From: Rubripirellula sp.
GTDB taxonomy: Bacteria > Planctomycetota > Planctomycetia > Pirellulales > Pirellulaceae
Length of the DNA: 64,000 nucleotides
Reading direction: 5' to 3'
NCBI GenBank assembly: GCA_965216875.1
Contig: OZ244207.1
Location: 640,001-704,000 of the forward strand
Shown here: positions 2,102 to 16,250 of the stretch, piece after piece
How positions within the stretch are numbered: position 1 is the first letter of the stretch
Layout: each line of letters begins with the position of its first letter
Program-made: the position numbers and the translations under genes
Notes under the pieces: model-generated
Told to the model about the DNA's origin: nothing
Databases searched by the model: none
The model's input: only the letters and a program-made list of their open reading frames with translations

Positions 2102-2283
2102 GTGTGAGTTGGTCGATGAGACGTCTGCCAAGAAGCCCTTTGTAGCCGTATATAAGTGCCTGGAAGTCGATGTATACGTCCAAAGCTGATGATCGCAACA
2201 TGTTGGTTCGATCAGGAACGGATAGTGATTTGATTCGGACGATTTCTGCGGTTTGTTACAGCAACGATTAGTCGGTGAGCATT

Positions 2284-3315
2284 GTGAAAAGTATTGCGTT
2301 TTTCAACAACAAAGGCGGCGTCGGTAAAACGACGTTGTCGTGCAATATCGCTGCCCATTTTGCTAAGGAACTTGGGAAGCGAGTGCTGGTGATTGATTGT
2401 GATCCTCAGTGCAATGCGTCGCAATTGATTCTATCCGAGGAGCGATGCTTTGATGTTTATCAAGCGGAGTCAGGCGACGATGCATCAACGCTCCTGTCAA
2501 TCCTTCATCCAATTAGCGATGGAGACGGTAGTATCGCGACCGATACAACGCCCGAGCTTTCAAGTCAAAATCGCTTCGCGGTTGATTTGATTCCCGGTCA
2601 CCCTGGAATGTCCGTTGTTGAGGACGTACTAAGTACGGCGTGGAATGATCTGCGGGCGTCTAAGGTCGGTGGGTTTCGCATCACGAACTGGTTCCCGCAA
2701 CTGATGCGTCAATTGCACAATCGTTACGACGTTGCATTCGTTGACCTTGGGCCCAGCCTTGGTCCGTTAACGCGAAGCGTGCTGCTGGGTGCGGACTATT
2801 TCGTTACGCCAATGGGTTGCGACATATTCAGCATAGTTGGGATTCAGAACATCGGTGAATGGCTAGAACGTTGGATTGACGAGTACGGTCGATACCTCGA
2901 GTTTTTTAGACGTGACAATAGCGCTGCTATCAAACGTTTTCAAATCAAAGAGCATCTGTCGATCCAGAACGGTTTTTCCGGTTACACGGTTCTCCAATAC
3001 ATAACGAAGTCACGCGGCGGAGAACGGAGGGCGACCGGTGCTTTCGAGGATATTCTTGAGCAGATACCCGAAGTCATCGAGTCGTCCCTTGGTGGTTTCT
3101 TTATTGATGATTTAACTTTGGGCAACGCACATCTAGGCGACATTCCGAACCTCTTTAGCTTAGTCCCACTTGCCCAGTCGTCACATTCACCTGTGGTTGG
3201 GCTTGAGTCGAGAGACGGATTGGCGGGCGGGCAATACAAACAACAAGAGGTCTATGCGGAATTCATTGAGCGTGTTGGGAATCGGCTTGCGATCAACACG
3301 GGATTTGATGGATGA
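2284..3315 (+). CDS. ParA/Soj-family ATPase
   Basis: Deviant Walker A FFNNKGGVGKTT, VLVIDCDPQCNAS and FVDLGPSLG; likely GTG start at 2284 (track start 2275). Confidence 0.88.
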   Translation: MKSIAFFNNKGGVGKTTLSCNIAAHFAKELGKRVLVIDCDPQCNASQLILSEERCFDVYQAESGDDASTLLSILHPISDGDGSIATDTTPELSSQNRFAVDLIPGHPGMSVVEDVLSTAWNDLRASKVGGFRITNWFPQLMRQLHNRYDVAFVDLGPSLGPLTRSVLLGADYFVTPMGCDIFSIVGIQNIGEWLERWIDEYGRYLEFFRRDNSAAIKRFQIKEHLSIQNGFSGYTVLQYITKSRGGERRATGAFEDILEQIPEVIESSLGGFFIDDLTLGNAHLGDIPNLFSLVPLAQSSHSPVVGLESRDGLAGGQYKQQEVYAEFIERVGNRLAINTGFDG

Positions 3316-4169
3316 GCATCAATTGGCCACAGTCGCTGATCCCTGAGGTCGCCGAGCGGCGTTGCATTATCGTACTGGGTTCTGGTGCAAGTGCGGGTTC
3401 GTTGTCGAGCGATGGAAAAACCCGTCCTCCGAATTGGAGCAAACTCTTGATTGACGCGGCGAGCTTGCTCGCCGATGACGACAAGAAGGTCGTGTTGGCA
3501 CTTGTCGCGAACGAGAAGTACTTGGACGCGGCCGAGATCGTCGTAAACCGGTCGAATGAGGCGGACTACGCCGAGTTTGTTCGAGATACTTTTGTTGAAC
3601 CTCGATTTGAACATTCTGAAATCCACGAACAAGTTCTTGCGCTTGATGCAAAGATTGTTGTTACGACGAACTACGATGACATATACGAAACCTACTGCAA
3701 GACAGGCAAGGGATCGCAAGGATACAATGTATGCCGCTACTATGAGTCCCACGCATTAAATGACGTTCGATCAAAAATGCGGATCATTTTGAAGGCGCAT
3801 GGGTGCGTTTCCGATCCGCAACGCACCGTACTTGCTCGCACTCAATATCACCGAGCTCAGCGTGAGAACTCGCAATTCTTCAATCTTCTCGATTCTCTTT
3901 TCTTAGCCAACACGCTTTTGTTTATTGGCTGCGGGCTTGCGGACCCCGATTTCAATTTGTTGCTTGAGAGCACTAATATCAAGTGTCCCAGCGCGCATCC
4001 ACATTACGCGGTCGTCGAGAATGGCGTTCCGCTGCCATTGCGCCAAGCGACCCGTACCGTTTACAACGTCGAATGCCTGGAATACGAGGCAGGGCAGCAT
4101 CAACAGGTTGTTGATTCGCTTAAGGAGCTAAACAATAAAGTCAGTGGTTGGCGCAGCACTCACTCATAG
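3312..4169 (+). CDS. SIR2-like (SIR2_2) protein, putative NADase
   Basis: IVLGSGASAG, VTTNYDD, LKAHG and LFIGCGLADP motifs; ATGA overlap with the ParA-like stop. Confidence 0.85.
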   Translation: MSINWPQSLIPEVAERRCIIVLGSGASAGSLSSDGKTRPPNWSKLLIDAASLLADDDKKVVLALVANEKYLDAAEIVVNRSNEADYAEFVRDTFVEPRFEHSEIHEQVLALDAKIVVTTNYDDIYETYCKTGKGSQGYNVCRYYESHALNDVRSKMRIILKAHGCVSDPQRTVLARTQYHRAQRENSQFFNLLDSLFLANTLLFIGCGLADPDFNLLLESTNIKCPSAHPHYAVVENGVPLPLRQATRTVYNVECLEYEAGQHQQVVDSLKELNNKVSGWRSTHS

Positions 4170-4365
4170 ACCGGTGGCGCTAACACGGTTGTCGAAGGAG
4201 AAAACGTCACCACGCCGCCGGAACTTCGGTAGATGTTCCAATGAGCAGTGGCGGATAAGTCTCCATTCCCGCAAACGCCCGCACCAACGCAAACGGATGT
4301 GTCACGTCGGAGCGACCGCGGGCGGTAACGCCCGAGAGAGCAAGCGACGAAATGCCGTTAGGCAC

Positions 4366-4742
4366 GGCGACTCATGGATGGTCGCCGCGAATGTGCCGTC
4401 GGGGCATGGATGCAGCCGGAACGCAGGCCATGGATGGCCGGAGTGGAGGCCGAGCGTAGCGAGCCGACGGCTCAAGCCGAGGGAAGCCCGTCCGGCAGGG
4501 AAGCGACCGTAACGAAGCATCAACGATTGAATACCAGATGTGTTTCCAATGCAGATTGATCTAACTCAACGAAAAGACGGGAGCGTTGCCGGTTAAGGGC
4601 CGGTGACATTTGCAGCGAATCGCCGGTTTGCCGAAGGTTTCAACCGTTGAACCACCGGATTGACAATCCAACACGAGCGGAGTCACCGCCGAGGCGGCAA
4701 GGCATGGATGCCGCTTTATAACTTCCGTAGCCATGGATGGCG
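4366..4742. repeat. Cluster of five CATGGATG-centred palindromes
   Basis: CATGGATG at 4373, 4405, 4429, 4703 and 4732, each centred in a short stem (e.g. ggccatggatggcc, cggcgac-tcatggatg-gtcgccg). Confidence 0.65.
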
Positions 4743-5326
4743 GAGGTCGATTTAGAGGCGGAATCCGTGTCTGTCCGATCTTCCCGGAACTGCGACCGTA
4801 TTTGGAAGAAGCCTGGGACGCGGCGGAAGATGGAGCAACGCGAGTCATCACGCGATACAAGAATCCGAAACAGAACCTGCGAACGCAGCTCGAGCGGATC
4901 ATCACGCGAGCCGGTCATCAGTCCTGGCCGCGATTGTTTCAGAACCTGAGAGCGACCCGCGAAACGGAGTTGATGGCTCGCTTTCCCGCAAAGGATGTCG
5001 CGACCTGGTTGGGCAACAGCGAGCCTGTCGCGATGATGCACTACGCGATGGCGACGAAGGCAAGTTTCGAGGCTGCGAAAACGACTGTCAGTTCGTTCGG
5101 AAGTGACGCCGATGAAGGCGAAGCAAAAAGCGAAGCACGAAATGACGAATCGGGCGAAAATGCGAAGCAAAAAGCTAAGCAGCACCAAACCGAAAAGAAT
5201 GGAGCCAAGTCGCAAAGGCCCGGAAAAAAGCGGGACAATCGCGACTTGGCTCTAGTGGGCTCCACCGCTGACTACAGCGGTAAGCTCCCCCGACAGGGGA
5301 TCAACTGCCGCTCTATTCACCGGTAA
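4733..5326 (+). pseudogene. C-terminal remnant of a tyrosine integrase (older element)
   Basis: WPRLFQNLRATRETEL...WLGNS...HYAM parallels WPKMFVNCRASCR...MGHS...HY of the intact integrase. No N-terminal or core-binding domain is present. Runs into the att repeat. Confidence 0.8.
5283..5297 (+). repeat. att core direct repeat (distal copy) agctcccccgacagg
   Basis: Identical to 16176-16190, which overlaps the tRNA-Asn 3' end. Confidence 0.9.
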
Positions 5327-5492
5327 ATGAGCGATTCGTCGGTCGTGGTGGTGCAGATGTGGTGCATCCTGACCGGATCGAACTCGCCCGACGGATCCTC
5401 ATCGAACACGGTCTACGAGATGTAGCCGAACTGCTCGCACTTACGGAGCCGAACATTCGTGGTGCCGCCTCTGTTGATTCGGGGGTGGGCCG

Positions 5493-6032
5493 ATGATCGT
5501 CAGACTTCGCGATGTGAAGGGAAACGCCCCGTACATCCCACCCTTCCCGGTAACCATGCCGACCGAGGAGCCAATCGATCGCTCCCTCCCACTGGACGAC
5601 CAGATCATGGCACTCACCTGGATCCCTGCGATCCTCGTGTCTCGGTTCCTTTACCAGTACCCGAACCTCGATTCAGAAGCAGACGAATTGTTCTCGGTCG
5701 GAATCGAGGTAGTTGTCGACATGGTCAACCGAGACGACGTCGACGGTGACGACCTCATCGCGTGGACGGTGGTCAACGCACGGCGAACGATGGAGGTTTA
5801 TGCGAGCGGTCTCGACTCTGTCGTCAAGGTTTGCCAGTCGACTCGCTACAATCGAGCGAAGCAAGGTAGGAAAGTGCCCTCGTCGGGAGAGCTGACCGAG
5901 CACGGCGGAGCGGGAACGGACGACACCGAGCGAATTATCGAGCTAGCGTGTCAGGCTCTCGACCTTGACATCCGGTCCGCGTCTTTTGCCGATCGAAAGC
6001 AGATCGCAGATTATCTCGGACTTACTACGTGA
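5493..6032 (+). CDS. Hypothetical protein, weakly sigma-70 region-2-like
   Basis: 179-aa ORF; EADELFSVGIEVVVDMV...LIAWTVVNARRTM resembles the sigma region 2 pattern by eye. Confidence 0.5.
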   Translation: MIVRLRDVKGNAPYIPPFPVTMPTEEPIDRSLPLDDQIMALTWIPAILVSRFLYQYPNLDSEADELFSVGIEVVVDMVNRDDVDGDDLIAWTVVNARRTMEVYASGLDSVVKVCQSTRYNRAKQGRKVPSSGELTEHGGAGTDDTERIIELACQALDLDIRSASFADRKQIADYLGLTT

Positions 6033-6345
6033 TTTCGCTTTGGCAGTGAGACCGATCTGCGGCAAGCCATGGGCCGATTCCGTGCGGAAGGCGGCGGAGG
6101 CGCGCAAAGCAAACGCACGGGCGAAGCGTAGGCTTGGCTAGAGGCATAGCACTCTACCGACGGTACGACTGGGACGAAATCGAACCGATCTACGGCAAAC
6201 CTTGGGCGGAATCTGTCAAGAAAGCCGCTGCCGCACGCAAGGCGAAGGCAGAGGGACTGAGGAACGACAGCTAGTGTCCGGCTTTTGGTAGTCAATCAGT
6301 TCGCTAGAATTGTCTGCGACAAAATACTCATTGGGGCACGACAGC

Positions 6346-7749
6346 ATGGACCCGACTATCGCAGAGCGGATGACGGAAGAAATCACCGGGAAATCAGTAG
6401 GCGGATGGTCCGTCGGCTCTTTCCTAGGTGCAGGGAAATCAGCATTGGTATTCGAATGTGCCAGGGATGACACAATCGCGGCGTTAAAGGTATTCGACCC
6501 TGACCTTGTAAACAGGTACGGGAAAGATACACAGCTAGAGCGTATTCGCAGAGAATTGTCGCTCGTGGGAAAACGTCATCCAAATCTGGTGCAGATCTAC
6601 GACGGAGGAGAGTGCCCGGATACTGGTTACCTTTTCGTGGTGATGGAGCTGATTCCGGGAAGCAATCTTGAGGACAAGCTAGCCGACGTCCCCCGGGACC
6701 GAATTCCCCCAATAATGTCACAGGTGACATCTGCTGCGATGTACTTGGAACAACTCGACATGGCCCATCGAGATATCAAACCTTCCAACATCGCGATAAC
6801 AGATGACTTTCAGCGGGCGGTACTGATGGATCTCGGAGTACTGCGACCGTTCGGCGAATCAGACTTGACTGACCAAGACGCGAAGGTCTTTGTTGGTACG
6901 CTCCGCTACAGCTCGCCCGAGTTCTTGTATCGAGCCGATGTTGGAACCAAAGAGTGTTGGAAGGCAGTTTCCATCTACCAACTTGGCGGAGTGCTGCACG
7001 ACCTGATCATGCGGAAGCAGCTTTTCCACGACCTCAGCGATCCGTTCAGTTTGCTTGTCGATGCGGTGAAATCACAAAGACCGAACATTTATGCAACAGA
7101 TGTGTCACAAGAGTGGGTCGATCTCGCACGAAATAGCTTGACTAAAGACCCCGAAGCAAGGTTGCGACTTGTTTCCTGGGATGATTTTCTAGTCACGGAT
7201 GAGTCCAATCGGGATAGCTCTGAAGCGATACGAGCCAGAGTGATGAAGAGGCAGCTGGCATCGCGACTACAAGCGACAGGGGAGGGTGATCGGTCCCAAG
7301 AGGCCAACATTCTCACTCACAAGATCAAGCACTTGGCAGAGACGATCGAGAACGCAGTTCACAATCAGTGTGCGGGCGACGACTCTTTCCCTCGCATGTC
7401 CATCACGAGCAACGACAGTCATCCCGTAGTCCTTCGTGTCGAGTTTTGCCCAAGTGACATCCACCTGCTGTCCCATACTATGGTCGCTTACTTCAAGTGT
7501 GAGATCGTCGACGAGGACTCGTTTTCGATCTGTGTGGACGCCTCATCCTTCCTGATTCCCACATCGACCGGCGTTGAACACCCGGCGTATGAACACGATG
7601 TGTTCCGTGGGAGAATAAGTTCTCCGAGCTTGGCCAGAGGGATTTCCGATTACCTTTACCAAGTGATTGATGCCGCCCAAAGCGTGTTTGGGATGGAGAT
7701 TACGGAACCATACGACTTGGGTAGCAGTTCAATGGGGCGCGACGAATGA
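6346..7749 (+). CDS. Hanks-type Ser/Thr protein kinase with uncharacterised C-terminal domain
   Basis: LGAGKSALV, AALKVF, HRDIKPSNI, DLG and GTLRYSSPE; ATG at 6346 (track start 6310). Confidence 0.9.
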   Translation: MDPTIAERMTEEITGKSVGGWSVGSFLGAGKSALVFECARDDTIAALKVFDPDLVNRYGKDTQLERIRRELSLVGKRHPNLVQIYDGGECPDTGYLFVVMELIPGSNLEDKLADVPRDRIPPIMSQVTSAAMYLEQLDMAHRDIKPSNIAITDDFQRAVLMDLGVLRPFGESDLTDQDAKVFVGTLRYSSPEFLYRADVGTKECWKAVSIYQLGGVLHDLIMRKQLFHDLSDPFSLLVDAVKSQRPNIYATDVSQEWVDLARNSLTKDPEARLRLVSWDDFLVTDESNRDSSEAIRARVMKRQLASRLQATGEGDRSQEANILTHKIKHLAETIENAVHNQCAGDDSFPRMSITSNDSHPVVLRVEFCPSDIHLLSHTMVAYFKCEIVDEDSFSICVDASSFLIPTSTGVEHPAYEHDVFRGRISSPSLARGISDYLYQVIDAAQSVFGMEITEPYDLGSSSMGRDE

Positions 7750-8903
7750 GTGGAACGTGGTGGGTCGGACAAAGCGACTTAGACGAAGATCAACTTAAGA
7801 TTATTTCTTTGCCGGAAACCGAGAGCTTCTTGGTCACGGGGCCGCCCGGGTCTGGAAAAACAAACCTTCTGCTGCTTCGAGCGAACTACCTCCATCTGAT
7901 GGGCTATTCCAACATCGCAGTGGTTACGTTTACGCGTTCACTCCGGGAGTTCATCGCAACTGGTGCGACTGCGTATGAGTTTCCAGACTCTCGCATCATG
8001 ACGTGCAACGAGTTTCTTTCCGACTTTCTCAAGCAGTTTGGTCGCAGAGTTTCACGCGATGGTACGTTTGAAGAGGTTCGGCGTCGAATCGCCGCAGAGG
8101 CCCGCGAGGTAGTCGATGAGATGGGCTTGGAAGACGTCTATGAGGCGATCCTGCTGGATGAAGCTCAGGACTACTTGCCCGAAGAAATCGACCTGTTTCG
8201 CCGTCTTGCCGAGCGACTTTGCTGCGTCGCGGATGGCCGACAGCAAATCTATGGGGGAGAGGATCCTCATGCAACGATTAGGGCGTGCGTCGACTCGTCC
8301 CATGAACTCAAGTTCCACTACCGGATCGGACGCTCGATATGCCGAGTTGCCGACGAAATAGCCAAGAGATGGAACGGGTTCGAGCCCATGATACAATCAT
8401 CCATGTACGTCGAGACCGACAACCCGTCGACCGTCGACACGACTCAGTGTGAGACGCTCGATGACCAAGCAGAATTGATTTTGAAGCGGCTGAAGACCCA
8501 GCTGACTGCGTTCCCGGGAGAGTATCTGGGCGTGCTCTGCCCCAAAAATGAGGAAACTGATCAGATTTGGAATTTCATCGCAAGTTCGGATCTTGCCGAG
8601 CATGCTGCCTTGCTGAAGAGTGGTGAAGACTTGATCCAATTGGAAGGCAAGCAAATCGTCGTCTCCACCTTCCACGGAGCAAAAGGTCTTGAGTTCAGGG
8701 CTACACATCTCGCAGCATCCGAGTCATTGCACAGCTTCCCAAATAATCGAAAGATGGCCTTTACCGTCGTCACTAGAACGAAAACCTCATTGTCCGTTTA
8801 TCACTCGAAGGATTTGCACGCCTACTTTGAGTCGGCTTTGAACTCACCAGACCCCGACCACACCCCTCCATCAATAGATGACTTGTTCGGAGGTGGCGTA
8901 TGA
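7746..8903 (+). CDS. Compact UvrD/Rep-like superfamily 1 helicase
   Basis: GPPGSGKT, LLDEAQD, ADGRQQIY, HYR, STFHGAKGLEF and VVTRTK motifs; ATGA overlap with the kinase stop. Confidence 0.88.
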   Translation: MSGTWWVGQSDLDEDQLKIISLPETESFLVTGPPGSGKTNLLLLRANYLHLMGYSNIAVVTFTRSLREFIATGATAYEFPDSRIMTCNEFLSDFLKQFGRRVSRDGTFEEVRRRIAAEAREVVDEMGLEDVYEAILLDEAQDYLPEEIDLFRRLAERLCCVADGRQQIYGGEDPHATIRACVDSSHELKFHYRIGRSICRVADEIAKRWNGFEPMIQSSMYVETDNPSTVDTTQCETLDDQAELILKRLKTQLTAFPGEYLGVLCPKNEETDQIWNFIASSDLAEHAALLKSGEDLIQLEGKQIVVSTFHGAKGLEFRATHLAASESLHSFPNNRKMAFTVVTRTKTSLSVYHSKDLHAYFESALNSPDPDHTPPSIDDLFGGGV

Positions 8904-10297
8904 TTCACTATTTGCAATGTGATCGCAGAGACTTTGCTCAACTGGTTTCCGCCAGAGCCCCCGTTGATGCAAAAGAAGTTGAGACGGCTGTTTTCTTGCG
9001 TGAGATAGAGCGTCGGAAACGCTCTCAAGATACTCTGACATTGGCTTGGCGAAACTCACCATCGACACGCTTTTCCTTACCAAGTTTCGTGGTCGTCGAT
9101 GAGGAGTCCCAGAGAGACTTTCACGCTTGGATTGCCACATACTTTCGCGATATCCAGCCGTTTTCTGCACAGTGTCGGGTACTTACACCAAGTTCTGCCA
9201 GATCGGTGATGGCAGCGTTGCCCATCGACGTGCATGCTCGCCTAGGAGCGGTTGATCTAGCTTTGGTCGTTGCCGAAGTTGCAACATATTCGGCGGGTAA
9301 ATTCGATTTGTCGAAGCTCTCTTTTCCCGCATATGAAAGATCGCTGTCGTTTGCGTTCTCACGAGCGTTGGAGCAATTTGGAGACTTCGATACGCCTAAT
9401 TCGCCCAGCCTGGGCGAGTTGGAGGCCTCTTGGATTAAGGCACGAGAATTGGCACGTGAGCCAGAGTTGTCACTTGAATCGAAAGCCATCACAGAGATTT
9501 GGCAGATCGTACTGAATGGCTTGCTCGTGTCACGCGTTCGCGGCCCGAGCGGAGGTCTGGAGTTTGTAAAAGCACTTCGGATGTTTCGCAAGAGTGGGCG
9601 ATTGCCACGGGGCTTGGTGAACAAATTGCCTTTGGATCTTTTTCCCGGCACACAGTCAACTCTTTTCGAGTTGAACGAACAGTCTAGGGAAAGTCGCGTA
9701 GTCGCATTCGAAGAGGCCGCGATTCACTTGTCTCGTACCACAATGTCGAAACGCACAAAGTCGTTTTTGCTGGGCTTTGTCGCTAGTCGAATCTCACCGG
9801 GAACCCTTAATCACATTTCCGTTCTTTACCCACACGTTGAGCGTTTTCGCGAGTGCCTATTCTGGTTCGGTGTATTTGCTGGACTCGAAAGCGACGCTGG
9901 CATCGCCGATTTTTCGAACGGACTAGGCTGGCTACTTCGAAGAGAGATAGGCCGCAGATCTTCTGTGTTTGACCGCCCGACATGCGATATCAGCATTGAG
10001 GATTTCGAAGTATCAATGATGGGAACAAGAACTAAGAGTCGCAACCTTCACGTGACATCAAACGGGATACTTAAGATTGAGATCTATCCGCTCGTGACAA
10101 CTAACGTAAGGTGGCCGCAAAGTCAGCAAGATATATCTGGCAGTCGAAACGCAACGCGGCACGGACAACTTTCGTCGATGGACGAGGAACGAGACGTCGT
10201 ACTGATGGAACTGCTGTCCAAGCTTGACGACAGCACCAGGCACATCGGCCATATCAGGAAGGATCTGGAGAAACTGATGCGGCGGAGAAAATCGTAG
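8900..10297 (+). CDS. Hypothetical protein (465 aa), probable C-terminal coiled coil
   Basis: Long ORF with ATGA overlap with the helicase stop; no recognisable motif. Confidence 0.75.
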   Translation: MIHYLQCDRRDFAQLVSARAPVDAKEVETAVFLREIERRKRSQDTLTLAWRNSPSTRFSLPSFVVVDEESQRDFHAWIATYFRDIQPFSAQCRVLTPSSARSVMAALPIDVHARLGAVDLALVVAEVATYSAGKFDLSKLSFPAYERSLSFAFSRALEQFGDFDTPNSPSLGELEASWIKARELAREPELSLESKAITEIWQIVLNGLLVSRVRGPSGGLEFVKALRMFRKSGRLPRGLVNKLPLDLFPGTQSTLFELNEQSRESRVVAFEEAAIHLSRTTMSKRTKSFLLGFVASRISPGTLNHISVLYPHVERFRECLFWFGVFAGLESDAGIADFSNGLGWLLRREIGRRSSVFDRPTCDISIEDFEVSMMGTRTKSRNLHVTSNGILKIEIYPLVTTNVRWPQSQQDISGSRNATRHGQLSSMDEERDVVLMELLSKLDDSTRHIGHIRKDLEKLMRRRKS

Positions 10298-10370: not shown

Positions 10371-10690
10371 TTAGCCAAACGCTGAGAACTGATCCCCGAG
10401 GGGAAACTCTGGCGTTTCTGATGACCAGTACAGCATTGGTTCCGGCTCACGCGAAATCAGAACGTGGTAGTGTCGTATCGTTCCGTCCGAGGCGGATGTT
10501 GTCTTTGTCGATTGCAGATAGGTAAGCACGGTGTCGATGGGGACTCTGACAAAGCCAGCTGTACCGAGAATAAAGACAACGTCCGTGACTCCGGCCTCAT
10601 TCATCTGATCAACAATGCTTGGCTTTATGCCGAACCAGTAGTAGTTCTGCCTTTCATGCAGCTTCGAGTACTTGATGTGGACGAGAAGTC
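10371..10690 (-). pseudogene. 3' remnant of an unknown gene
   Basis: C-terminal ~105 aa of ORF 10371..11090 (HIKYSKLHERQNYYWFGI...) looks protein-like; the rest of that ORF is the antisense of the recombinase fragment. Confidence 0.45.
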
Positions 10691-11069
10691 CGAGTTGTTT
10701 AGCGTCAACGATTCGATTGACACACGCACGGCGGGCGGGCGTCTTGTGCTCAACGTGTTGTTCTCGGTCGCACAGTGGGAACGCGAAGCCATCGGAGAAC
10801 GCACACGCGACGCCCTGCGGCACAAGATCGACAACAGAGAGCGCGTCGGGAAAGTTCGATTCGGCTTCGATCTTGCGGACGATGGGCGAACGCTCGTCGA
10901 CAACCAAGCGGAGCAAGACGCGATAGCCTGGATGAAGACGCTGAGGGCGGACGGCTTCACGCTTCGACAGATTGCGGCAGCGTTGACCGATCGGGGCGTC
11001 GCAACGAAAGAGGGACGCAACGAGTGGACCCACACGGCGGTGAGCGGGATTCTGAAACGGGCAGCGTGA
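10691..11069 (+). pseudogene. 5'-truncated serine recombinase (resolvase family)
   Basis: SIDTRTAGGRLVLNVLFSVAQWEREAIGERTRDAL plus a C-terminal HTH; the catalytic YxRVS N-terminus is absent. Confidence 0.8.
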
Positions 11070-13050: not shown

Positions 13051-13151
13051 ACTTAATTGCGTAGAGTATTTCTCTAATCTATATAGGAAAGAAATTCAGT
13101 AAGTAAATGAATAGATAGAGGCTGGTTGCGAAATGCTCGACGCAATTAAGT
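13051..13151. promoter_or_regulatory. 22-bp imperfect inverted repeats flanking an AT-rich core (putative ori or regulatory site)
   Basis: acttaattgcgtagagtatttc (13051-13072) versus the reverse complement of 13130-13151 (acttaattgcgtcgagcatttc): 20/22 identical. Confidence 0.6.
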
Positions 13152-14668: not shown

Positions 14669-14810
14669 AGACGATGCTGCAGGAGATCCATGTCAAGCTA
14701 TTTGCCTCCATTCCAAAGACGCTTGGGTCAGACAGCCGCTGCCTCAGCCTGTGTCTGGGTGAGCGGCTGTGTCGTTCGTCGTACGGCCGAAACGGATATG
14801 GGGTGCCTCA

Positions 14811-15050
14811 ATGATCTCACTCGATACTGATGGACTTGCCGACCTAATCGCTGATCGTGTAGCGGAACGACTCGCACCGGAACCCGTGTTCCTGAGTGCG
14901 GACCAACTAGCGACACGAGTCGGTCTCGGTGTGGCAACTGTGCGGAAGTTGTCACGTCGAGGTGACATTCCGACAATCATGATTGGACGTAGAAGACTCT
15001 TTGATTTGCAACGTGTAAGGGAGGCATTGGCTGATGGGCTTACGACTTGA
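14811..15050 (+). CDS. Excisionase-like HTH protein
   Basis: FLSADQLATRVGLGVATVRKLSRRGDIPTIMIGRRRLFD, immediately upstream of and overlapping int. Confidence 0.8.
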   Translation: MISLDTDGLADLIADRVAERLAPEPVFLSADQLATRVGLGVATVRKLSRRGDIPTIMIGRRRLFDLQRVREALADGLTT

Positions 15051-16239
15051 GAAATACAAGGGACGATCTGGTTACCGATACCAATTCACGGTCGGCGGTG
15101 TGCGGCGCTCGCTTTGGTTGGGCAAGGTGCCACGTCGAACAGCCGAAGAGATTGCCCGCAACGTCGACCGCCTCGCACTTGCTTGCGAGACGCAGACACA
15201 ACCACCTGTAGACGTTCAGCAGTGGGCGGTGAAAGTGTCCGGTAGACTTCGAGAAACGCTAGAGAAGTGGCAACTGATCGAGCCGTCGGTCGTATCGGCT
15301 CGTACACTAGCCGACTTCGCGTCAGCGTATATTGCCACGAAAACGGACGTGAAGGAGGCAACTCGCGAGAAGTACGGTCATACCAAGCGGATGTTGGTTA
15401 ACCACTTCGGACCGGATCGCACCATCGCGTCGATCACCAAGGCAGATTGTCAGCTGTGGTACCGATCGATGCTCCAGACGCACGCGGAGACCACGGCGGG
15501 CAAGCACGTGACCAGGGCACGCACCATCTTCCGATTTGCGGTCGATGGCAACATGATCTCCAGCAATCCATTGGATGGAATCAAGGTCAGCGACCAGATT
15601 GACCGCGACCGCGAGCACTACGTCACCCGAGACGATGCCGCCCGTATCCTCGAACACTGTGATCCCGAGCAAGGCGTCGCCTTTGCACTCGCTCGATTCG
15701 CCGGTCTCAGACCGTGTGAGTTGCTTAGGCTCACCTGGAGCGATATTCGCGAGGATCGGATTCGCGTTGATTCAGTCAAGACAGGTCTGCGTTGGATGAG
15801 ACTGGAACCGGACGTACGGAAGCAACTCGATCGGCTTCCTCTGCGTGAGGGTCGAATCCTCCGGCGTTGGTCGCCCGATGCGAATCTTGCAACCAATCTC
15901 AAGCGAGTCATCGAGCGAGCAAATGTGAAGCCATGGCCGAAGATGTTCGTCAACTGCCGAGCGTCGTGCAGGGGTGACTTGGAAGACCGGTTCCCTTCAT
16001 GGGTCTGCGACCTGCTGATGGGTCATTCGCAAGAGGTTGCGGACAAGCACTATCGCCGACTGCACGATGAGTATTTCGTGGTGCAACAGCCGGTGCGTCG
16101 TGCACCACTACCTAGTGATACTGAGGGATCGTGGTGCGAAGACCAGCCCGCAAATAGCGGTGCGGGCCTTGTTTCAGCTCCCCCGACAGGACTCGAACCT
16201 GTGACAAGGCGGTTAACAGCCGCCTGCTCTACCAACTGA
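15034..16239 (+). CDS. Tyrosine recombinase / phage integrase
   Basis: AGLRPCELLRL (R), KTG (K), NCRASCR, MGHS and HY motifs; the 3' end runs antisense through the tRNA. Confidence 0.92.
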   Translation: MGLRLEKYKGRSGYRYQFTVGGVRRSLWLGKVPRRTAEEIARNVDRLALACETQTQPPVDVQQWAVKVSGRLRETLEKWQLIEPSVVSARTLADFASAYIATKTDVKEATREKYGHTKRMLVNHFGPDRTIASITKADCQLWYRSMLQTHAETTAGKHVTRARTIFRFAVDGNMISSNPLDGIKVSDQIDRDREHYVTRDDAARILEHCDPEQGVAFALARFAGLRPCELLRLTWSDIREDRIRVDSVKTGLRWMRLEPDVRKQLDRLPLREGRILRRWSPDANLATNLKRVIERANVKPWPKMFVNCRASCRGDLEDRFPSWVCDLLMGHSQEVADKHYRRLHDEYFVVQQPVRRAPLPSDTEGSWCEDQPANSGAGLVSAPPTGLEPVTRRLTAACSTN

Positions 16240-16250
16240 GCTACAGGGGA
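16178..16250 (-). tRNA. tRNA-Asn (GTT)
   Basis: Reverse complement is TCCCCTGTAGCTCAGTTGGTAGAGCAGGCGGCTGTTAACCGCCTTGTCACAGGTTCGAGTCCTGTCGGGGGAG: cloverleaf, GTT anticodon, TTCGA T-loop; CCA not encoded. Confidence 0.97.

Follow-up and report, generated by a model that had tools for sequence, protein, structure and literature searches.

The DNA analysed here (the window, 64,000 nt of a planctomycete genome) contains a mobile island of about 11 kb inserted in a tRNA gene and bounded by a 15-bp exact repeat, which has only these two exact copies within the window (Table 1). An Rfam scan returned the target tRNA as its sole match. The integrase gene runs into the tRNA gene on the opposite strand, is overlapped at its start by an excisionase-like gene, and carries four arm-like repeats of a motif chosen by eye. 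These are matched by tandem repeats on the other arm, at offsets like those of the relatives' repeats (+61 to +123), so that the beginning of the sequence behind the distal core looks native to the element. An earlier reading of this DNA, made from the sequence alone, had described the attachment locus exactly and had missed the second, 5′-truncated integrase gene that crosses the distal core and matches the family integrase profile only at positions 258-361.

Table 1 Features of the island and its left flank (positions in the window).
Feature	Positions	Strand	Remarks
5′-truncated tyrosine integrase	4733-5326	+	older neighbouring element; crosses the 5283 core in a different frame
Distal att core	5283-5297	+	copy of tRNA-Asn 3′ end; exact 15-bp repeat of 16176-16190
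Circle-only integrase tail frame	5298-5496	+	65 codons and TGA
Tandem GTGGTGC repeats, likely integrase arm sites	5348-5365	+	+65 and +76 from core; putative arm function
Likely 3′ remnant of phage gene X	5440-5494	+	23 nt missing; anchored one-deletion test
Predicted hairpin burying the ORF 5493 Shine-Dalgarno	5461-5491	+	opening cost 12-18 kcal/mol
Phage-family protein, 179 aa (ORF 5493)	5493-6032	+	predicted sigma-2 fold, residues 13-112; no sigma-4 match
Cargo cassette: Ser/Thr kinase, UvrD-like helicase, 465-aa unknown protein	6310-10297	+	Pfam and PADLOC domain hits; defence-like
Excisionase-like HTH_17 gene	14769-15050	+	PF12728, E 3.9e-7; overlaps int start; putative role
Tyrosine integrase (int)	15034-16239	+	401 aa in integrated state; last catalytic motif at about residue 340, ahead of core
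Arm-like repeats (four)	16078-16163	+	int linker part; -98, -86, -45 and -19 from core; putative function
Proximal att core	16176-16190	+	inside int, at tRNA 3′ end
tRNA-Asn(GTT), integration target	16177-16250	-	antisense to int end

The surroundings bear traces of other elements. Two further elements with the same geometry occur in the genome, at tRNA-Arg and tRNA-Gln, and a third copy of the core, with one mismatch, lies at genome position 637331, 2.7 kb left of the window. Behind this third core (L051:1330-1750, genome 637331-637750) the two-helix motif of the integrase family, described below, is found twice in different frames; the second copy has arm-like repeats of its own ahead of it and could represent either the end of another lost element or a free copy. 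The neighbouring element encodes a defence-like pair of a ParA-like ATPase and a SIR2-like gene with overlapping ends (window 2275-4169). The place of the missing 5′ part of the second integrase is occupied by about 370 nt (window 4172-4541) with 77% identity to genome positions 1239033-1239377, within the tRNA-Arg element.

In the integrated state the int ORF ends 16 residues past the core. A scripted in-silico join of 16190 to 5298 yields an integrase of 451 aa with 66 residues past the core, confirming the sequence-only reading on the position of the attachment site within the int frame, the two protein lengths (401 aa against about 451 aa) and the 65 additional codons. Crossover anywhere within the exact repeat gives the same frame; a frame-shifting exchange was one of the results that this reading had named as speaking against it. 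The overlap that it reported between the stop of the circle integrase (TGA 5494-5496) and the start of the next gene (ATG 5493) is likewise present, as an ATGA at 5493-5496. When the element is integrated, the tail frame is closed by a TAA (5281-5283) just before the core. A run of 65 open codons would arise by chance alone with a probability of 0.12-0.16, and this one locus therefore shows no design by itself; that the read-through is more than chance follows from a comparison across the integrase family.

Integrase matches were obtained in 207 of 401 family genomes, the source genome included, and 100 of the 150 matches listed were fetched, selected for long upstream sequence. A tRNA gene lies just downstream of int in 86 of these 100 loci, always antisense, and the int ORF continues past the tRNA 3′ end in 82 of the 86. 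A distal core was found for 45 loci, and removal of three whose ORF stops before the core and of one spurious match left 41 joins. Every one of these keeps an open frame of 50-107 codons (median 64), compared with 5 of 82 control frames that stay open for at least 50. A leave-one-out tail profile scored best in the int frame of every join and reached at least 10 bits in 40 of 41 int frames and none of the 82 control frames. The integrated forms of these 41 integrases end 2-31 residues past the core. Re-examination of 20 loci with more DNA gave nine more joins, eight of which match the tail profile and one of which is open for 29 codons only, bringing the total to 49 of 50 circles open for at least 50 codons and 48 carrying a conserved two-helix motif (at least 10 bits). 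The joins are not all independent since 10 integrase pairs share more than 70% identity, the median among the integrases compared being 44%. The check on homologous elements that the earlier reading had proposed thus divides, with the open frame conserved (49 of 50 joins) and the coupling to a sigma-like gene found in none of the other fetched loci.

Because attP lies inside int, the integration state would set the C-terminus of the integrase, and the isoform switch that the sequence-only reading suggested is supported by the comparative data, as a family-wide arrangement of the kind found in Mx8. The comparison shows that this seemingly exceptional design is general among the integrases of a large planctomycete family, in which a small conserved domain is encoded solely on the circle; the family would offer a simple test of how the direction of recombination is set. 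Searches of the literature, with most subscription journals outside their coverage, found no paper on a planctomycete att-spanning integrase family. The family tail profile gave no score for any of 14 integrases from the database, and most of those shown end in sequence antisense to the tRNA. One 533-aa database integrase (P0012, contig of about 11 kb) passes through a tRNA-like core into a non-standard tail and may be a natural circle form; a search for tails of this type, run without a positive control, gave none in 401 genomes. At another locus (L089) a family integrase adjoins a gene that ARAGORN assigns to tRNA-SeC, which would be an unusual target should the assignment hold.

The arrangement can be placed among known systems. 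In Mx8, integration exchanges a long integrase C-terminus of 112 residues for a short one of 13 (PMC4701971), and the short form has been measured as less active (PMC6070905, PMC4701971, PMC4383910). As there, int spans attP, the catalytic part is kept and the C-terminus is swapped, here from 66 to 16 residues; unlike Mx8, the present element is a capsid-less 11-kb island whose circle tail also overlaps a downstream gene. A review describes the placement of attP inside int as present in very few elements (PMC4701971). By analogy with Mx8, the family tail may tune integration against excision, in which case the long form would favour integration and the short form would be less active. Kinship to the phage integrases searched is distant (best E 2e-7 among 194 weak hits, with Mx8 not among the 12 listed). 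SSV-type integrases use a tRNA target. These suicidal integrases also contain the recombination site within their gene, but their integration leaves the catalytic Int(C) apart from Int(N) (PMC8371274), whereas here all catalytic motifs (integrase residues 221-342) precede the core (residues 381-386). The catalytic domain thus stays whole, and the right precedent is Mx8, not the SSV-type split that the earlier reading had invoked. Two other systems show partial likeness. In mycobacteriophage BPs integration also removes a C-terminal piece and changes the state of a protein, but there attP falls within the repressor gene and what is lost is a degradation tag (PMC4557955). In Tn916 it is on the circle alone that genes at one end come under control from the opposite end, and this control is transcriptional and terminator-insulated (PMC11658703), whereas the link proposed here is translational and known in a single copy.

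The gene joined to the circle integrase, ORF 5493, is full length (homologues 173-198 aa) and was called sigma-like by the earlier reading, a call borne out at the level of predicted fold for residues 13-112. The predicted structure matches domain 2 of sigma-70 proteins, phage sigma factors among them (PDB 8vjl, 8b3z, 8hkc and 7d7d), at 8-18% identity, and a sigma factor heads the PDB profile hits (E 0.037). No Pfam sigma hit was found in 20 members of the ORF 5493 family. Residues beyond 112 are barely covered by the fold hits, and the C-terminal 60 residues gave no sigma-4 match. The homologues adjoin polymerase, helicase, ParB and nuclease genes in phage-type operons, and the three homologue loci tested returned no integrase hit. 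In all six phage-type loci the upstream gene overlaps the start of the sigma-like gene, in three by ATGA and in three by 11-29 nt. In the closer loci this upstream gene is gene X, of about 160 aa and with 26 database members, for which no Pfam, PHROG or PDB assignment was obtained; we take it to be possibly a papain-like peptidase, from its Cys and His motifs. An unannotated phage family (L157:9535-12253, L158:9627-12188, L156 and L181-L183) carries a conserved block in which gene X, with its Cys/His motifs, the sigma-2-like gene, a gene Y and an exonuclease-like gene all have overlapping ends. Neither ORF 5493 nor gene X was matched among annotated phages. Viral scans were empty for the integrase, for gene X and for the nearest homologue of the sigma-like protein, and three viral loci carrying the downstream nuclease gave no sigma hit. 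Among the 125 fetched loci the sigma profile matches only in this genome and the gene X profile in none. In a separate scan of 300 family genomes, 19 weak hits to ORF 5493 were rejected as long unrelated ORFs.

The circle tail of this element departs from that of its family. While the integrase family, the antisense tRNA geometry, the repeat offsets on both arms and the tail length agree with the other att-spanning members, the two-helix motif is lacking, and in its place is a likely phage remnant that leads into the overlap with the sigma-like gene. The family tail profile scores 22.9, 17.7 and 12.4 bits for the genome's three other elements and -1.2 bits here, and finds nothing elsewhere in the element. 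In the tail frame, positions 5440-5460 read LTEPNIR and resemble a conserved motif of gene X, and the ten codons before the sigma-like start, read in the frame of gene X, resemble the last stretch of that gene, 23 nt being absent between the two pieces. The score of an anchored one-deletion test, which was designed after the motif had been noticed, was reached by none of 1500 element and none of 1500 genome null windows, also with the Shine-Dalgarno columns masked; taken separately, the two pieces have p values of 0.002 and 0.008. Plain searches are weak: the full gene X profile scores -1.4 bits, a value that 75 of 500 shuffles attain, the C-terminal profile is equalled by 3 of 500, and hhalign gives a probability of 2%. 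A frameshift-aware alignment was reached by none of 120 nulls with lenient gaps and by four of 120 with strict gaps. At 5459, exactly where the deletion is placed, stands an arm-like repeat, as would suit native attP sequence, and positions 5366-5439 are not accounted for by the remnant reading. We consider it fairly likely, from this sequence resemblance, that 5440-5494 is a remnant of the end of gene X. As 5440-5491 match that end but for the 23 absent nt, the ATGA link was likely captured as a junction from a phage. Such an overlap belongs to the source phage operons themselves, and the sigma-like gene was found in no other fetched element; ATGA coupling as a design of the element family is therefore not supported.

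On balance, and with some reserve, we favour the reading that this is an island with attP inside int, in which the tail end is likely a captured phage fragment that would tie a sigma-like gene to integrase translation. Under this reading the circle would make a longer integrase than the inserted copy. A phage piece comprising the end of gene X and the sigma-like gene would have recombined in just past the arm repeats, replacing the usual two-helix end of the tail, and the loss of 23 nt would have shifted the integrase frame onto the TGA inside the ATGA. In the circular form, ribosomes that reach the end of the integrase frame would unfold the hairpin covering the sigma-like gene's ribosome-binding site, and output of the protein is predicted to rise after excision, as a by-product and not an old design. 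The new part of this locus is the sigma link and not the read-through, and the link is probably a one-off accident and no conserved switch, since a single copy makes an evolutionary snapshot likelier than a system. If so, the locus is a natural replacement of the family tail domain that could show whether the domain is needed, and it illustrates that a site-spanning frame can pick up any gene landing behind it.

Whether the captured overlap could work as a translational coupling depends on the start of ORF 5493. Its Shine-Dalgarno sequence is very strong (-13.4 kcal/mol with the 3′ end of the genome's 16S; 2 of 3000 random 17-mers are comparable), and the predicted cost of opening it exceeds that of 32 of 33 comparable starts in the genome and of all six phage homologues. 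Coupling at ATGA overlaps is known to work through ribosomes that arrive from upstream and open a blocked initiation region (PMC6728339); the present locus shares the overlap and may share the block. Coupling of integrase and sigma-like gene is thus plausible, given the predicted hairpin over the ribosome-binding site, and we grade it as possible and as not conserved. The proposal of the sequence-only reading that the integration state controls sigma expression accordingly keeps its plausibility as coupling, while conserved control is unsupported.

These same properties would suit a selected switch, in which a small lineage of islands kept the phage sigma-like gene under the integrase-opened hairpin and excision turns the gene on. 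That the frame stayed open across the inferred 23-nt loss, that the ORF is full length and that the tail frame is closed by a TAA when integrated agree with such selection, as does the finding that four of 41 family tails end in ATGA before an ORF of at least 80 codons (background 3.3%, P 0.044; none of these ORFs is sigma-like). However, only one copy is known: a search of 400 other genomes from the phylum did not recover the sigma-like gene, nor did the other fetched elements contain it, and 300 family genomes gave weak unrelated hits only. The open frame has the appreciable chance given above, and the hairpin does not go beyond its nulls, as 42-70 of 400 null sequences with such Shine-Dalgarno strength are equally blocked and a fold z of -3.1 appears in only the narrowest of three windows. 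We regard selection as rather unlikely. The stronger form of the idea, that a stolen phage operon junction acts as a recombination-gated translational switch making an undescribed phage-type sigma factor on the circle alone, is likewise rather unlikely. Were it true, excision itself would reprogram the host RNA polymerase; and if the coupling works, translation of a sigma factor would be gated by excision, for which no published case was found in the literature searched. At the distal ends of three other loci (L057, L067 and L097) the circle-tail stops overlap the starts of small helix-turn-helix-looking ORFs (106-194 aa), a possible recurrent coupling to regulators.

The state of the element might also be irrelevant to the sigma-like gene, which would be on, or silent, either way through read-through from the neighbouring element and internal starts, in an element that may no longer excise. 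The second GTGGTGC repeat and the codon after it provide GTG starts in the tail frame (5359 and 5362), with an SD-like site of -8.6 kcal/mol and a moderate opening cost (6-7), that could feed this frame in either integration state; the genes upstream of 5283 share its direction, with one terminator-like site (4912-4930) against 2.7 expected by chance in a consensus scan; and the family tail motif is absent. A weak consensus scan found no sigma-70-type promoter on the plus strand at 4500-6500. Yet the GTGs fall in arm-like repeats and may be a by-product of these, and the integrase catalytic motifs, the excisionase-like gene and the arm-like repeats are intact, which makes this explanation improbable. 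Contigs of four sequencing runs (X1-X4, from one study, possibly the source) contain neither an attP nor an attB joint, which says nothing on excision since contigs drop rare forms; two further runs (X5 and X6) gave just short, mostly near-identical pieces at low depth, and X7 and X8 yielded nothing.

That the tail is instead a native, divergent subtype of the family's helical tail, its likeness to gene X being fortuitous, is quite unlikely: a helical-looking stretch does begin immediately behind the arm-like repeats, at the place of the family hairpin, a hairpin-only profile gives 0.6 bits (E 0.04), a few family tails are divergent as well (L134, 4.6 bits; L088, 10.1 bits) and the P0012 tail has a loosely similar stretch (pairwise E 0.2), but a search of 400 family genomes for circle-tail homologues gave just 16 weak hits, all of them away from any tRNA or integrase, the amphipathic moment is not above that of shuffles (39% reach it), and the gene X match of the anchored test keeps register with the sigma-like start. 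An unrooted tree groups the integrase with its closest relative (67% identity) on a long branch among standard-tail integrases, the exact place of the branch being modestly supported, and the contig of that relative lacks both element ends; the tail may for these reasons be lineage-specific.

The kinase-helicase cassette follows a gap of at least 277 nt and has a GC content of 52% against 58%; no fold signal was obtained in 6020-6320 (z 0). Its helicase and third gene were matched on four plasmid records. In the two plasmids examined a kinase precedes them, the order is kept, and the annotation has neither a sigma nor an integrase gene immediately upstream. The cassette, found in this form on proteobacterial plasmids, is likely independent, defence-like cargo, and the suggestion that the integration state might also control it is unsupported. 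PADLOC gave domain-level hits only, with no whole-system match, and the cassette is a candidate for an undescribed defence system. The gene order is common to Cupriavidus and Rhizobium plasmids, in one of which it stands beside a DUF1837-helicase pair. Two further features lie between the cassette and the integrase. A serine resolvase gene at window 10464-11069 is without its N-terminal part and is intact in the closest relative (L056), and a 22-nt inverted repeat, 91% complementary, lies between divergent gene blocks at window 13051-13151 and may be an operator or origin.
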